Assembly (NCBI GenBank): GCA_963799775.1
Contig: CAWCYD010000003.1
Coordinates: 768,001 to 832,000 of the forward strand
Length of the DNA: 64,000 nt
DNA from: an uncultured archaeon
GTDB lineage: Archaea > Thermoproteota > Nitrososphaeria > Nitrososphaerales > Gagatemarchaeaceae
Direction: 5' to 3'
Position 1 is the stretch's first letter. Each line of letters starts with the position of its first letter. Positions 1-49,265 of the stretch are shown here, one piece after another. The position numbers and the translations under genes are program-made. Below the pieces are notes generated by a model. It was not told where the DNA came from, made no database searches, and saw only the letters and a list, made by a program, of their open reading frames with translations.

Positions 1-64
1 GGATTTGAACCCAGGTCGCTACCTCGAGAGGGTAACATGCTTGACCGGACTACACTACCGGGGC
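1..64 (-). tRNA. tRNA-Glu(CUC), 3' end cut by the window edge
   Basis: Reverse complement GCCCCGG-TA-GTGTAGTCCGGTCAAGCAT-G-TTACC-CTCTCGA-GGTAG-CGAC-CTGGGTTCAAATCC; anticodon CTC. Confidence 0.93.
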
Positions 65-11586: not shown

Positions 11587-11719
11587 TGGCGGGCCCGGAG
11601 AGATTTGAACTCTCGATCTTCGGCTTCGGAGGCCGATGCCCTGATCCGTGCCAAGGGTGAGGTTCTCGGTGCCATGCTCATTTCCCCATCGCGGACGGCG
11701 GTGCCTAGGCTACGGGCCC
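11587..11719 (-). tRNA. tRNA-Arg(CCG) with 54 nt of extra sequence in the D-loop, encoded CCA
   Basis: GGGCCCG/CGGGCCC acceptor, TCGGC-CTCCGAA-GCCGA anticodon arm, GAGAG-TTCAAAT-CTCTC T arm; insertion about 11651-11704. Confidence 0.88.
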
Positions 11720-15576: not shown

Positions 15577-15672
15577 AGCCCGTTCGTCTAGTGGTCAAGG
15601 ATAGGGGCCTCTGGAAGCGCTCAACGCGTTTGGAGTTAGCCCTTGACCCAGGTTCGAATCCTGGACGGGCTA
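15577..15672 (+). tRNA. tRNA-Gln(CUG) with canonical 37/38 intron (15615-15637, 23 nt)
   Basis: AGCCCGT/ACGGGCT acceptor (A1-U72), anticodon CTG, BHB helix CTCT/GGAG with bulges GGA and TTA. Confidence 0.93.
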
Positions 15673-15825
15673 CCTCCTCAATTCTAGCTCTATTTGCCCA
15701 GAATAGCCTGATACTGGATGTATCGCCATAACGGGTCTTATATCATAGGTATTTGCCGCGTCTGGACGGGCAAGCTGGCTAGGCGGCCTGGTTGGGCCAT
15801 AAGATGTCGCAAGCCCTCGAGAGTC

Positions 15826-45228: not shown

Positions 45229-45629
45229 TCGCTCGCCAGGAGGCGCGCCACTTTGGCTTGTATCTCGTCCCTGATCGCCCTGACCTGATCGACTGACTTT
45301 CCCTTCGGGTCGTCGATGTGCCAGTCGACCAGCTTCTTCTGCATCTTGGCCAGCATGGGCCTCGGGCAGACGCCTTCGACGGAGCAACCCATCGTGACCA
45401 CGACGCTCGCCTTGTCTATCATTCCGGTCGTGAGCATCTTGGGCTTGTTCTTGGAGAGGTCGATCCCTATCTCCTTCATGGCATCTACCACCACAGCGTT
45501 GACCTTGGGAGAAGGGACCGTCCCGGCGCTGGACGCGTCGCCTCCCAACGCCCTCGCGAAGGCCTCCGCCATCTGGCTGCGGCCCGCGTTCTCGACGCAA
45601 ACGAACAGCGGCGAACTTCTCTTGGTCAA
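45225..45629 (-). CDS. arsC: Arsenate reductase, LMW-PTP/thioredoxin type
   Basis: FVCVENAGRSQMAEA, TMGC...CP, W..DDP. Confidence 0.9.
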   Translation of the reverse strand: MTKRSSPLFVCVENAGRSQMAEAFARALGGDASSAGTVPSPKVNAVVVDAMKEIGIDLSKNKPKMLTTGMIDKASVVVTMGCSVEGVCPRPMLAKMQKKLVDWHIDDPKGKSVDQVRAIRDEIQAKVARLLASD

Positions 45630-46353
45630 GGCACCCTCCTCAGGAACCTGAAGGTGAGGCCGGCCACCATCGCGCCCAGAAGCGGCCCTACGATGTAGAC
45701 CATCAGGTTCGCGTAGTAGCCCGAGAATAGCGAAGGCCCCAGGCTCCTGGCCGGGTTGAACGATGCGCCGGTCACACGGACCTATGAGCATGATCAGGAC
45801 GAAGAGCGTCGAACCGACGAGCGCCGCCTGCGCGACCGGCCGCTCCAAATGTGCCGAGGCTGTGAGGGCGGCGCACGCCAAGAGGAAATGTCCCTACCAT
45901 CTCGATGGCCACACCTGCGACCGGGCTGACCCCGGGTGCCAGACGCGTCGAACCGAGGAAGCTGGAGGCTGCCACGGTCCCGAGCGCCGTCTTGAGGACC
46001 AGGCCCGCTGCTAGGCCTCCGACAAGCTGGAAGACAAGGTAAGGGGCGACGAGCTCCTTCTTGGCCGACCCAGAGAAGCTGCTCGCGATCGTGATGGCGG
46101 GGTTGATGTGCGCGCCGGAAGACCGGCCAAAGGCCAGGATCATCGCCGCGACGGTGAGACCGAACACGGCCGAGACGAAGACAAGGCCGAGAATGGCCGG
46201 GAGGGACAAGAGAGAGGCGATGATGACAGAGGCGCACCCTACGAAGACGAGGGTGAACGTCCCTACCATCTCGGAGAGGAGCTCCTTCCGACGCCCGACC
46301 GAGGTGAGCGTCGAGAGACCCAGGGCCCTCGTCAAAATCATTGTGCGCGTCAT
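45626..46353 (-). CDS. MIP/aquaporin channel, frameshifted
   Basis: SGAHINPAIT; second FNPARSLGP in a shifted frame. Confidence 0.85.
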
Positions 46354-46417
46354 AGGAGCTTCGTTACGCAAGAGCAACAACTCATCGGCCAGATCTTCTG
46401 GATTCGAGTAGGCGAGA

Positions 46418-46657
46418 TTACTGACTGCATTCTCCCTTGTACTTGCCGTCTGTCTTGACGACGAGGCCGTGGATGACCAGCCTCCGGACCACCCTCGAGA
46501 CGATCTCCTGGTGAAGGTTGGTCGCATCGCGGACCTGCCCGAAGGTGACGGGTGTCGTCGAGTTGCATATCACGCGGCACACTTGCGATTCTCTCTCGGT
46601 GAGCTCGACGCAGTCCGACTCTACGGTGCATGCTTCTCCGCAACACGCTAGCTCCAA
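46418..46657 (-). CDS. Cys-rich winged-helix regulator
   Basis: LTERE..V, F..VR..TNLHQEIVSRVVRRL...GLV; 7 Cys including an N-terminal CC. Confidence 0.7.
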   Translation of the reverse strand: MELACCGEACTVESDCVELTERESQVCRVICNSTTPVTFGQVRDATNLHQEIVSRVVRRLVIHGLVVKTDGKYKGECSQ

Positions 46658-46721: not shown

Positions 46722-46759
46722 TGGCGGGCCCGGAGAGATTTGAACTCTCGATCTCCAGC
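46722..46759 (-). pseudogene. Orphan tRNA-Arg 3' half (positions 39-76, with CCA)
   Basis: GCTGG-AGATC-GAGAG-TTCAAAT-CTCTC-CGGGCCC-GCCA; no adjacent 5' half. Confidence 0.85.
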
Positions 46760-46784
46760 ACGTCCTCGCGTTCGGCCACACTTG

Positions 46785-47429
46785 CTAGAGCAACTCTGCT
46801 AGCTGCACGAGCTTTCTACGTTTCTCGGGATGATTGAAGCCGATTCTTCGAGCGTATAAGCCAAGATTTCTTCTGTTGAATATGTCAAGCTCGTAAGCTT
46901 GCGACCAGTTTCTTCTGGTTGGTTTTTCACGAGAGTAGATTGCGCTTCGAATTCCGAAGGAGTCCCAAAGAAGCGTCGCTACGCTCTTCAGGCCAAGCTG
47001 GTTAGTCGATTTTGCCCGAACCTTGCATTTCGATATGATCGGCGAGAGATATACGTCACCATCCCCATCGAAAAATGATCGAAGCCACCTCGCCGCTGTC
47101 AGAATATTGAGCGAGGCGAAAGGAACGACCCAATTGCGTCGACCGAATGGCCCATATCGCATGATGTCAATTGCCATTGCTTTCCCATAGGCCCTAATCA
47201 CTCCTTCGGTTGGCCTATCGCGAGCTATGACGCCATATTCGAGTCGGACATGATCAGCGAACAACTTGCGAATAGATGCGTTTGGCTCCGCAAGTTGGAG
47301 AAGATAGGTCCATTTGGGATTTCGCTTTCGGTATCGGCTGCAGCACACAGTTCCATCAGCGCATAGCATTCCGTGCAAGGACGCTCTTCTCGGTGTGAGA
47401 AGTGGAAGAAAATCTGCTCGGCTGTGCAC
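46785..47429 (-). CDS. Free-standing two-motif LAGLIDADG homing endonuclease
   Basis: SLHGMLCADGTV and WLRSFFDGDGDV helices, C-terminal IGF...EK..KL; no intein splicing motifs; AT-richer than host genes. Confidence 0.88.
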   Translation of the reverse strand: MHSRADFLPLLTPRRASLHGMLCADGTVCCSRYRKRNPKWTYLLQLAEPNASIRKLFADHVRLEYGVIARDRPTEGVIRAYGKAMAIDIMRYGPFGRRNWVVPFASLNILTAARWLRSFFDGDGDVYLSPIISKCKVRAKSTNQLGLKSVATLLWDSFGIRSAIYSREKPTRRNWSQAYELDIFNRRNLGLYARRIGFNHPEKRRKLVQLAELL

Positions 47430-47490
47430 AATAATCTATCGCTGCCGAGTATTTCACGGCCACCGTCAAGTTTCAACACTCACCGGCTAC

Positions 47491-47496
47491 AAAAAA
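47491..47496 (-). terminator. Oligo-T terminator after tRNA-Arg(GCG)
   Basis: TTTTTT two bases after the discriminator. Confidence 0.6.
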
Positions 47497-47497
47497 G

Positions 47498-47592
47498 CGG
47501 GCCCGGCCGGATTTGAACCGGCGACCCCCAGCTTCGCAGGCTGACACACCCAGCATGGTTTGATGCCCTGATCCGTACTAGGCTACGGGCCC
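47498..47592 (-). tRNA. tRNA-Arg(GCG) with non-canonical 29/30 intron (47542-47560, 19 nt)
   Basis: Complete cloverleaf; BHB GG-GCAT-CA^A-ACC...GGT-GTGT-CA^G-CC. Confidence 0.93.
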
Positions 47593-47614: not shown

Positions 47615-49265
47615 CTAGTTATGTTTTCCAGATGCCGAAGTCGCTTCTTGTAGCCTGTTGGCGACATTGGCGATCCCCGCATCCAAGACATAGGGACCTA
47701 GCCTCGGACCCTTCTGCGCGCCGAGCAAGATGCCGTATACCGCGGGGAAGAACTCGCCAGCCTGGAGGCCGCTAGCCCTCATCGCGCCGAAAGCCGCGGT
47801 CTGCACGTCGTCGGCAGTGTGCACCTTGGCGAGGGCTGCCGCGAACTCTTCTATCGACTTTCTTTGCTTCTCGGATAGCTCTGGGAGCTCCTGTTCCTGA
47901 AGAAGCGATGCCGCTCCCTCCCTCTTGGCCCATGCAGCTGCCCACCCCATCCTCTTGACGAGGTCAGGGCCCGGGGCTTCCTTGATCATCCCATAGTTTG
48001 TCAGTCGCTTGGAGACGTACTCGACGAGCGAGCCTTCCGGCGCGGTCGAGGCCAGCTGCGCGAGGAGCCTGTAGGGAACGTGGATGCCCGGCTTGGCGGG
48101 GACCTTGAGGAGATTGGTGTATTCGTAGAGCCCCCGGAGCCGCGCGTCCTTCAATGCATTGGGGTCCTCTTCTTGGAGAAGTAGTAGTCCTCGAGCTCGT
48201 CGAACTCGTCCATGTAGACGGGGACGTCGTCCACCGAGATGCTCCTCGCCCCGACGATGCGCTTGAACATGAGGAGCCTGACGCTCTCTGGAGACGCGTA
48301 CGTGAGCCAGTCGTGGATCGTGATGACGTTCCCGACCGACTTGCTCACCTTCCTGCCACTCTTGTCCTGGAACATCTCGTACCTTGCGTGATAGGGGGGC
48401 GGATGTCCGAGGATGTTCTCGCTTATCCAGTCGTTTATCTTGACTGACTCTGCGATGTCCTTGCCGTAGGCCTCGAATCGGATGTCCAGCGCGCCCCACC
48501 TCGCCGCGAACTCGCTCTTCCATATCAGCTTCCCCTCTCCCTCCGTCACCTTCCTGTCGCCCTCGTGCCCGCAGCCCGCTATCACCTTCTCACCAAGCTC
48601 GGCGCTCGCGCACTTGTAGTGGACCGTCTGCGCGACCGGGTCATACGAGGAGACCACGGTCGTGTACAGCCTGCCGCAGTTCTGGCATATCGGGGTGTAA
48701 GGCAGGACCGTGAGGTACTTCTCCTGCCCCGTCAGCTCCTTGATCATCTTCCCCACGAGCTGGGCGTTGTCGAGTATCTTCGTGATCTGAGGGTTGAGGA
48801 GCCCGCTCTTGTAGACCTCCGCCCCGCTCTTGAAAGTGTAAGGTATGCCCAGGTCGTCCAGCGCGGCCCTTAGGAGCCCCCCCGTGTGGGCGCCGAAGGA
48901 CTTGTGGCAGCCGAACGGGTCGGGGATGCGCGTGACTGGGTGTGCGATGTAGTCCTTGAGCCATTCAGGGAATCCGGCCGGGACTTCCTCAGGCCGTCGA
49001 GGTCGTCGGAGTAGGCGATCAGCTCCGACCTGTAGCCTTGGGTCTCGAGCGCGAGCTTGATGCCGTAGCTCCTTATCGCGTCGCCGACGCTCCCGATGTG
49101 CGGTATCCCGGAGGCGCCGAGGCCGCTCTCGACGCGTAGGAGCGAAGTGTCCCTGCCAAGGGCCTTCTCGCGCTCCAGGAGCTCGCTTGCTACCCTGTCG
49201 AGCCACGTGCCCCGTCCGATGACCTTGGTCTCCTGCGACGACACTGGACGGACCAGACGCTCCAC
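47615..49265 (-). CDS. lysS: Class I lysine--tRNA ligase, two frameshifts
   Basis: GASGIPHIG, IPDPFGCH, CQNC, EAYGKD, KVSKSVGN, GPRLG. Confidence 0.92.

Follow-up and report, generated by a model that had tools for sequence, protein, structure and literature searches.

A free-standing LAGLIDADG endonuclease gene in an archaeal tRNA-Arg(GCG) locus: a candidate homing cassette that brings its own replacement tRNA part

The tRNA-Arg(GCG) locus and its endonuclease

A 64,000-nucleotide (nt) stretch of DNA from an uncultured archaeon of the Gagatemarchaeaceae (positions 768,001 to 832,000 of contig CAWCYD010000003.1, assembly GCA_963799775.1), hereafter named the window, contains on its minus strand a complete transfer RNA (tRNA) gene for Arg(GCG), a LAGLIDADG endonuclease gene and a second, 5'-truncated 3' piece of a tRNA-Arg(GCG) gene (Table 1). 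The genome holding the window (three contigs, 2.47 Mb, 81.67% complete) is named G000; other G numbers denote the genomes of relatives and L numbers denote loci. An earlier description, made from the sequence alone (the original prediction), had placed these elements in the same order, strand and positions, and all of them were found there.

Table 1. Coordinates of the features of the tRNA-Arg(GCG) locus and of the loci compared with it
Feature	Position	Strand	Evidence or remark
Proximal tRNA-Arg(GCG), working copy	47592-47498	minus	Rfam tRNA match, 48.2 bits
Exon 1 of the proximal tRNA	47592-47561	minus	
Intron of the proximal tRNA (19 nt, at 29/30)	47560-47542	minus	
Exon 2 of the proximal tRNA	47541-47498	minus	
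T6 run	47496-47491	minus	Right after the tRNA: discriminator G, C, then T6
A/T-rich box GAAATAC	47455-47449	minus	~20-26 nt upstream of the GTG; candidate TATA box
LAGLIDADG endonuclease open reading frame (ORF), free-standing, two-motif, 214 amino acids, GTG start	47429-46785	minus	ORF list and Pfam
Spacer, stop codon to distal piece, 25 nt	46784-46760	minus	Sequence
Distal tRNA-Arg(GCG) 3' piece, 38 nt (positions 39-76 plus CCA), T stem GAGAG/CTCTC	46759-46722	minus	
tRNA-Arg(CCG), paralogue with a ~55-nt D-loop intron	11719-11587	minus	Comparator, outside the cassette
Second cassette family, L070	G018 C3:388220-391561		
Second cassette family, L069	G227 C131		
Second cassette family, L071	G196 C33		

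The proximal gene had been described as a complete tRNA-Arg(GCG). It is complete and it reads GCG, but the intron at 29/30 had been overlooked: the gene is not colinear with a tRNA and carries a 19-nt insert after the D stem. The place of this intron is ambiguous in G000 alone (26/27 or 29/30, owing to a repeated TCA), and the differing flanks in G017, L059 and L062 fix it at 29/30, within the 5' strand of the anticodon stem. The anticodon GCG was read from the sequence of the anticodon loop (CTGCGAA); ARAGORN also calls a tRNA here but misreads the anticodon. In a pattern scan of G000, which is blind to genes with a 37/38 intron, the proximal tRNA held the sole tRNA-like GCG anticodon arm. 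Its 3' part reads GCTGG GGGTC GCCGG TTCAAAT CCGGC CGGGCCCG, followed by CTTTTTT, with a GCCGG/CCGGC T stem, a GGGTC variable loop and no encoded CCA. Oligo-T runs terminate archaeal transcription, and the T6 run is likely the transcription stop of this tRNA; a comparable trailer, CTTTTTC, follows the endonuclease-free allele of G005. The lengths of T6 and of other homopolymers are possibly inexact, since neighbouring genes show apparent frameshifts. The T6 run is separated by 61 nt from the GTG start codon of the ORF, and within this interval the GAAATAC box matches by eye the ATAAATAC and CATATAC boxes found at equal distance in L055, L057, L058 and L064, which makes it a candidate TATA box for a leaderless endonuclease mRNA.

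The distal piece has no 5' partner of its own and reads GCTGG AGATC GAGAG TTCAAAT CTCTC CGGGCCCG CCA. As had been noted, both 3' parts start with GCTGG (773 nt apart) and end with CGGGCCCG, and their T stems differ. The reported identity of the distal piece to the tRNA-Arg(CCG) of the same genome was also verified, and extends over 33 nt, from position 44 to the CCA. A search of the window for a 23-nt stretch of this piece gave two exact matches (46722 and 11587), where none would be expected from 100 shuffles. The 5' part of tRNA-Arg(CCG) is likewise common to native-type tRNA-Arg(GCG) genes.

The ORF product matches Pfam LAGLIDADG_3 (E 4.7e-11) and contains two LAGLIDADG motifs (LHGMLCADG and FFDGDGDV), each with its conserved acidic residue, as in the monomeric two-motif class of these enzymes. 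The DGDGD sequence (D121-G-D-G-D125) is invariant in 19/19 aligned relatives, and the aspartate of the first motif is kept in every aligned member that covers that region. The AlphaFold2 model obtained from the alignment of 19 relatives (mean predicted local distance difference test score 88.1, predicted template-modelling score 0.87) has two repeated units of a helix plus four strands, that is, the pseudo-dimeric alpha-beta-beta-alpha-beta-beta-alpha fold. Foldseek retrieved with this model PI-PfuI, the TliVMA intein endonuclease, I-DmoI and I-Tsp061I at E values of ~1e-8 to 4e-7, with a probability of 1.00 for I-DmoI, PI-PfuI and I-Tsp061I and a target-normalised template-modelling score of up to 0.72 (I-DmoI); comparison of the sequence profile with the chains of the PDB gave chance-level matches only. 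The ratio of nonsynonymous to synonymous substitution rates (dN/dS) was 0.10-0.17 in five clearly unsaturated pairs of homologues, and the ORF is thus under purifying selection where this is measurable. Because of the fold match, the retained aspartates of the motifs and these dN/dS values, the endonuclease looks active, as far as sequence and model can tell. The family is small: 23 proteins were found in a collection clustered at 90% identity, and of 1.84 billion cluster representatives, 6 matched at E <=1e-30 and 47 at E <=1e-10. The closest homologues (P0002-P0006) are 65-77% identical.

Recurrence of the arrangement and variation among relatives

A metagenome scan yielded 11 loci, ten of them with close relatives of the endonuclease; these ten reduce to six distinct loci, which together with G000 and G021 make eight: G000, G021, L055 (=L056), L057 (=L060), L058, L059, L062 and L064 (=L061/L063). 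The contigs of P0002-P0006 are outside this count. The close homologues share 36-68% identity where it was computed. The proposal that triplets of a tRNA, a LAGLIDADG gene and a tRNA 3' piece could be found by a search of archaeal genomes and metagenomes was borne out at all eight distinct loci (all with enough flanking sequence), where a tRNA-Arg(GCG), the endonuclease gene and a 5'-truncated second 3' piece lie on one strand, and where a single endonuclease ORF of ~0.65 kb is all that is found between the two tRNA parts.

The point at which the distal piece starts varies among the loci: ~27-30 in L057 and L064, ~30 in L062, 31 in G021, 39 in G000, ~48 in L058 and the T loop in L059, and only 11 nt are retained in L055. 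These pieces match functional alleles from elsewhere. The piece of G000 is identical to the working tRNA of L055 (38/38) and that of L062 to L059 (32/32); those of L058 (29/29) and L059 (17/17) are identical to functional alleles in other genomes; that of L061 agrees with G006 at 69/71 positions, the variable-region intron of G006 included, and that of G021 with G017 at 43/46. G021 has an endonuclease 47% identical to that of G000, directly after an intron-less tRNA-Arg(GCG) with a GAGGG/CCCTC T stem, and its distal piece runs from the anticodon loop to the CCA (GCCAG ATGCC GCCGG...CCGGC). The cassette-borne tRNAs have an intron at 29/30 in 5/8 loci and at 37/38 in 2/8.

L062 begins with an orphan 5' piece of the native gene (positions 1-27, acceptor GGGCCCG) and 46 nt of other sequence; next come a complete tRNA-Arg(GCG) whose acceptor stem is of another type (GGGGCTG/CAGCCCC), the endonuclease gene and a decayed native 3' piece. 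The arrangement reads as the insertion of a whole foreign tRNA together with the endonuclease gene into the resident gene.

Among 23 genomes of the genus (G000 included) the tRNA-Arg(GCG) locus was identified in 11; in the other 12 it was outside the 30 loci fetched or not recognisable. The order of LysRS followed by tRNA-Arg(GCG) is conserved, with LysRS found upstream by tblastn in 10/11 of these loci (the exception is G006). The nine endonuclease-free alleles are highly diverse: the intron is at 29/30 in G013, G005, G017 and G012, and at 37/38 in G009, G016, G018 and G007; G006 has a variable-region intron only, and G012 has one besides its 29/30 intron. According to the original prediction, alleles of this kind should carry the GAGAG/CTCTC T arm, and a GCCGG/CCGGC arm would speak against the cassette. 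The first arm was found in 2/9, with GCCGG/CCGGC in 5/9 and GAGGG/CCCTC in 2/9. Since the T arm is polymorphic, this comparison does not discriminate.

One important question is which of the two 3' parts is native in G000. The LysRS core of G000 is 86.5-89.5% identical to those of L055, L064 and G016, and 82% identical to that of G013. The GAGAG/CTCTC T stem is found in the working tRNAs of L055, L057/L064 and G016, and in G000 it is present in the distal piece only; G018 also uses it, the LysRS core comparison covering L055, L064, G016 and G013. The exons of the proximal tRNA, in turn, are identical to those of G013, and the introns agree at 16/19 positions. The string formed by the proximal T arm plus acceptor is unique in the G000 genome and therefore has no internal donor; it was not copied from a paralogue. 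The displaced part thus matches close relatives and the inserted part is foreign, the relatives being other species rather than the same species. The endonuclease of G000 is 56% identical to that of L055 and 49% to that of L057, with 68% between L055 and L057, and these distances appear larger than the near-equal LysRS distances predict. We therefore agree with the view that the distal piece would be the native remnant and that the proximal part would have come with the endonuclease gene. The use of the encoded CCA as a mark of the native part did not hold, as CCA is encoded in 5/8 proximal tRNAs.

A second tRNA family shows the same layout. A profile search retrieved distant LAGLIDADG genes (222-230 amino acids; 28% identity for one) in G018, G227 and G196, which belong to three genera. 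In 3/3 the gene is inverted between a complete, intron-containing tRNA with a CAT anticodon, which we take to be initiator-like from its A1:U72 pair and GGG/CCC anticodon stem, and a distal 3' piece. The distal piece has a T stem unlike that of the working copy, and a T-loop intron (59/60). In G018 the T stem of the distal piece is GGTGG/CCACC and two T-arm introns are present, as in the endonuclease-free alleles of G011, G017 and G006, and the working tRNA has a GAAGG/CCTTC T stem without a T-arm intron. The strategy is therefore not a one-off.

A candidate homing cassette and its alternatives

Comparison of these loci leads us to propose, with a probability of roughly two in three, that the endonuclease gene belongs to a free-standing LAGLIDADG homing cassette, with neither intron nor intein, which resides in the tRNA-Arg(GCG) gene beside LysRS, brings in a substitute for part of the tRNA and displaces the native part. 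The intron-free cassette of the original prediction is in this respect strongly supported by the eight loci, the allele types, L062 and the second tRNA family; its placement of the cut near the anticodon would have to be narrowed, as the junctions point to ~27-31. The anatomy of the locus, its recurrence, the fold and motifs of the enzyme, the selection on the ORF, the degenerate copies and the allele types of the pieces are observed; what we infer from them is that the enzyme cuts, at which site, that the proximal copy resists cutting, how the break is repaired and that the cassette still moves, as follows. The enzyme would cut an endonuclease-free tRNA-Arg(GCG) gene near positions 27-31, in the 5' strand of the anticodon stem; the cut is placed there because the native fragments of L062 end and begin at these positions and the longest distal pieces start there. 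The break would be repaired from a cassette-bearing copy, with the conserved 5' part of the tRNA as left homology, and the cleavage-resistant tRNA part would be copied in along with the endonuclease gene. The right end would rejoin somewhere inside the resected 3' part of the recipient. The expected outcome is a working hybrid tRNA, whose transcript would end at the T run, an endonuclease gene with its own promoter (the A/T-rich box) and a 5'-truncated native 3' piece downstream. The proximal copy would escape cutting by an intron that splits the site or by a stem rewritten with compensation, the latter being the putative case of G021 (TCAGC/GCTGG, compared with the native GCCAG strand).

Synonymous sites are saturated in 22/28 endonuclease pairs, and the intact distal pieces are therefore not all neutral relics of one old insertion; judging by their state, they must be young, refreshed or constrained. 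The varied junctions together with the intact bodies would fit best with repeated events that rejoin a resected 3' end of the recipient. Some copies are degenerate. The endonuclease of L058 has GHG for GDG (Asp to His) and a scrambled stretch, and in L064 the frame closes after 59 residues; the distal T stem of L063/L064 has a G53:C61 mismatch. Close homologues are present in only 2/23 genomes of the genus (G000 included) and 2/401 sampled genomes of the order. The degenerate copies and the patchy spread may be read as signs of the stages of a selfish life cycle.

By analogy, the closest known system would be the gene hybrids created by mobile ORFs (mORFs) in fungal mitochondria, described for atp6 of Allomyces macrogynus and for atp6, atp9, cox2 and nad3 of Glomus; for the Allomyces mORF it was shown biochemically that the endonuclease drives mobility (PMC3630166). 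As far as the accessible part of that source goes, the host gene there has a foreign, divergent 3' part, followed by a LAGLIDADG or GIY-YIG ORF and the displaced native 3' part, and of the two parts it is the native one that better matches relatives lacking the endonuclease (PMC3630166). The same order of parts (hybrid gene, ORF, displaced 3' part) was found in 8/8 tRNA-Arg(GCG) loci. The systems differ, to the same extent of the source, in that the target is here a chromosomal tRNA gene of an archaeon and there a mitochondrial protein gene, and that recoding is here by compensated stem changes plus introns and there by synonymous codons. Here, moreover, there is no in-frame fusion of the ORF, the 5' ends of the distal pieces vary widely, and a whole tRNA appears to have been imported in L062.

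The SegB gene of phage T4, as described in the accessible part of its report, is likewise a free-standing endonuclease gene among tRNA genes with intronless homing; the enzyme cuts the tRNA gene region of a relative that lacks it and is inherited together with flanking sequence (PMC2330249). Unlike the enzyme described here, SegB is, by the same account, a GIY-YIG enzyme of a phage. We know of no partial tRNA duplication or replacement half described for SegB. The best structural matches, I-DmoI, I-Tsp061I and PI-PfuI, are also monomeric two-motif enzymes of ~180-220 residues, but their genes lie inside ribosomal RNA introns or inteins, which are excised from the RNA or the protein, whereas the present ORF has no surrounding intron or intein. 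In synthetic cleave-and-rescue gene drives, a nuclease directed against an essential gene is linked to a cleavage-resistant rescue copy of that gene. The proposed cassette would follow the same logic, with the difference that it would be a natural element whose rescue copy stands at the target locus itself. No report of an archaeal LAGLIDADG gene accompanied by a duplicated part of a tRNA was found in a literature search of incomplete coverage.

Homing endonucleases of archaea are known from ribosomal RNA introns and inteins; in fungal mitochondria and phages there are free-standing enzymes that rebuild the gene they target. The cassette would bring the same strategy to chromosomal tRNA genes of archaea, in at least two tRNA families, with compensated stem changes and introns forming the rescue copy. 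If the enzyme cuts at the site suggested by the junctions, it would provide an experimental handle on the odd intron positions of archaeal tRNA genes and on protection against mobile DNA, and the enzymes would be new meganucleases specific for tRNA genes. For annotation, it is a warning that tRNA 3' fragments and allele swaps in archaea can be driven by an endonuclease instead of an integrase.

A wider claim, speculative and on present evidence unlikely, is that such cassettes act as natural cleave-and-rescue drives on essential archaeal tRNA genes and have helped to shape the diversity of archaeal tRNA introns. The inferred cut site at ~27-31 coincides with the 29/30 intron present in 5/8 cassette tRNAs and in 4/9 endonuclease-free alleles, and four more of these alleles have the 37/38 intron close by. 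The type of G006 is the only endonuclease-free allele type without an intron in that stretch, and it is the type displaced in L061 and L064 (69/71). If the claim were true, non-canonical tRNA introns would be a form of immunity at the DNA level, splitting the recognition site and being spliced out of the RNA; some introns might arise from collapsed cassettes, and the one orthologous tRNA gene of this one genus would record an arms race across four intron positions.

Several observations weigh against the homing cassette. The types of proximal tRNA differ among related endonucleases (L055, L057 and L058), and the cassette's own half is therefore not one stable sequence. The Foldseek list includes, further down, WhiA, a non-catalytic DNA-binding protein of the LAGLIDADG fold. 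The divergence of the endonuclease is similar to that of the host (47% identity between G000 and G021, compared with ~47% for the C-terminal domain of LysRS), and much of the patchy distribution could stem from a long vertical residence in which the gene was lost many times. One junction is common to L057 and L061, whose distal pieces are still identical outside the variable region at a dS of 0.38; selection on the distal piece, or its conversion, would account for this as well as a recent origin would. A co-conversion tract in LysRS was considered, as the identity of G000 to L055 falls from 89% in the core to 63% over the 186 C-terminal residues, which adjoin the cassette. It was rejected, because the identity of L055 falls likewise to L064 (86% to 70%) and to G016 (88% to 69%), and the drop is a general property of the C-terminal domain. 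The assembly of G000 carries apparent indel errors. Finally, no endonuclease-free allele of the same species with identical flanks was found, the public reads giving sparse, short contigs. No RNA run with this stretch was listed, and one DNA run contained a fraction of 0.19 of the sampled words; assembly of X1 yielded four pieces of 151 nt with exact identity, of which two fall within the ORF, and no contig across the locus. A contig of a relative assembled from public reads (X2) has a tRNA end that runs into a spacer resembling that of L058.

The alternative that survives best, although we consider it rather improbable, is that the gene is an old resident that is no longer mobile. A LAGLIDADG-fold protein would have been captured before the genus diversified, would have taken a host function, such as DNA or RNA binding at the tRNA locus in the manner of WhiA or of organellar maturases, and would have been lost in most lineages, the distal piece being kept or refreshed by conversion from paralogous Arg tRNAs. 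The host-like divergence, the dN/dS of 0.10-0.17, the presence of WhiA among the structural matches and the intact distal pieces behind the shared junction of L057 and L061 are all consistent with this, and a conversion donor exists in G000, where tRNA-Arg(CCG) equals the distal piece over 33 nt. Set against it are the catalytic-motif aspartates, conserved in all aligned members, and the fact that the endonuclease and the proximal tRNA of G000 do not track its LysRS relatives. The degenerate or truncated copies of L058 and L064 and the absence from 21/23 genomes of the genus argue against a needed host function, and the foreign tRNA between native fragments in L062 requires an insertion event.

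A much less probable explanation is a giant intron, made up of the proximal 3' part and the ORF and spliced out at a relaxed bulge-helix-bulge, or an alternative, possibly trans-spliced, 3' exon represented by the distal piece; both would yield an additional tRNA-Arg(GCG) isodecoder. In L057 and L064 the distal start at ~27-30 does have the xUA|GCCUG context of the 3' splice site of the 29/30 intron, and the preservation of the distal pieces exceeds what would be expected of neutral DNA. However, the statement that no bulge-helix-bulge fits around the ORF was upheld: neither inspection nor cofolding of the 5' region with the distal region (four loci) gave a canonical motif, and 4/4 cofolds lacked a cloverleaf with one, so that the archaeal bulge-helix-bulge intron class does not apply in its canonical form and is improbable with a relaxed motif, the distal pieces being truncated or unpairable in most loci. 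The distal strand GCCAG of G021 cannot pair with TCAGC, the only 5' strand present; the distal pieces of G000, L058, L059 and L055 have no anticodon arm, and those of L063/L064 have the G53:C61 mismatch. A scan of the window with Rfam at gathering thresholds gave three tRNA matches only and no group I intron. The trans-spliced half, raised earlier as an alternative, was not supported either. A 15-nt motif of the tRNA 5' end occurs twice in the 2.47-Mb assembly (81.67% complete), both times in a complete gene, and the 12-mers complementary to part of the 25-nt spacer gave one match elsewhere in the assembly, in an unrelated context. Two further candidates were rejected, namely a bulge-helix-bulge formed by the spacer CGCG with the anticodon-loop UGCG, which would lie 6-7 nt, and not 3, from position 39, and an origin of the 19-nt intron as a relic of a 3' half starting with GCTGG, as the introns of relatives vary with compensatory changes in an ACC...GGT hairpin.

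An eroded tyrosine-recombinase element, which would have integrated at the tRNA 3' end with duplication of att and then lost all but the endonuclease gene, is hardly credible: G000 does have classic att-like arrays, and an element-end sequence follows tRNA-Arg(GCG) in G016 and G018, but the reported lack of an integrase at the locus was confirmed (of the five PF00589, Phage_integrase, matches in the G000 genome the nearest is >320 kb away), all eight loci have just the one ORF between the tRNA parts, and the two 3' parts are no exact att repeats, as they differ throughout the T stem and the variable loop and the duplication reaches ~27, compared with att cores of 15-22 nt elsewhere in the genome.

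Other tRNA-linked loci and neighbouring genes

Thirteen distant loci (22-38% identity) were also compared. ARAGORN found a tRNA in two of them (L042 and L048), and Rfam, run on 5/13, found tRNAs in L042 only; most of the thirteen thus show no link to a tRNA. No tRNA was found in L065 (27% identity). L042, from a metagenome-assembled genome of the Methanosarcinales, has a LAGLIDADG ORF (27% identity) whose 3' end overlaps an intron-containing tRNA at the 5' end of the latter (L042:2501-3191), and a tRNA-Glu lies 765 nt upstream, an arrangement unlike the triplet. In L068 (G280 C89:1-2404), from an AT-rich genome of another family of the order, a CAT-anticodon tRNA is followed after 26 nt by a LAGLIDADG ORF on the same strand (E 5e-20 against the profile); no distal tRNA piece was seen on inspection of this locus. 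L101 (G000 C3:750649-753804) lies ~15 kb before the window and contains a tRNA (L101:1155-1250, plus strand) followed by a convergent LAGLIDADG gene. This gene appears frameshifted (ORFs of 203 and 64 amino acids), and a stretch of ~18 nt of the tRNA trailer is repeated beyond the ORF with 83% identity, so that L101 may be a third tRNA-linked endonuclease locus in G000. Genome-wide, G000 has 19 LAGLIDADG_3 domain matches, most of them inside open frames of 480-1477 amino acids, where they are likely inteins; by this count the genome is rich in homing endonucleases.

Integrative elements were observed as well. The region C3:1227123-1239798 of G000, outside the window, looks like tandem integrated elements with att repeats: a tRNA at 1239.7 kb has downstream of it six repeats of ~15 nt of a tRNA 3' end (CTGCCGGGCCCGCCA type), distributed along ~6 kb (C3:1227-1233 kb), and a similar element end is found at C3:46990. 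Downstream of tRNA-Arg(GCG), G016 (L019), G018 (L038) and G022 (L024) share a conserved CCAACTTTTCACGCTC... sequence and have a second GGGCCCGC remnant. This remnant (CTGCGAA...GGGCCCGC, ~25 nt after the tRNA) was considered as a scar of endonuclease loss and rejected, as the CCAACTTTTCACGCTC... sequence is also present at G000 C3:1229287, within the six-repeat att-like array, and is the end of an integrative element. In relatives, the tRNA-Arg(GCG) locus is therefore used by integrase-type elements as well.

The neighbours of the locus are LysRS, a MarR/TrmB-like protein, a MIP channel and a low-molecular-weight phosphatase. The class I LysRS gene (window 47618-49244, minus strand) is readable in three frames only, with breaks near 48984 and 48160-48175, and the MIP channel gene (45626-46527) seems to be split between frames. 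Given the three contigs and the completeness of 81.67%, these breaks are probably assembly indels and not signs of pseudogenes.

The D-loop intron of the tRNA-Arg(CCG) of G000 (window 11660-11705) resembles that of the tRNA-Arg(GCG) of L055 (L055:~2180-2240), a likeness that suggests intron sharing or gene conversion between Arg isoacceptors. The window also contains a tRNA with an intron at the canonical position (15577-15674, plus strand), which by its loop CTCTGGA was assigned to Gln CTG, and, at its edge (1-64, minus strand), a truncated tRNA that has no intron. Introns are thus present in 3/4 tRNAs of the window, at three different positions.

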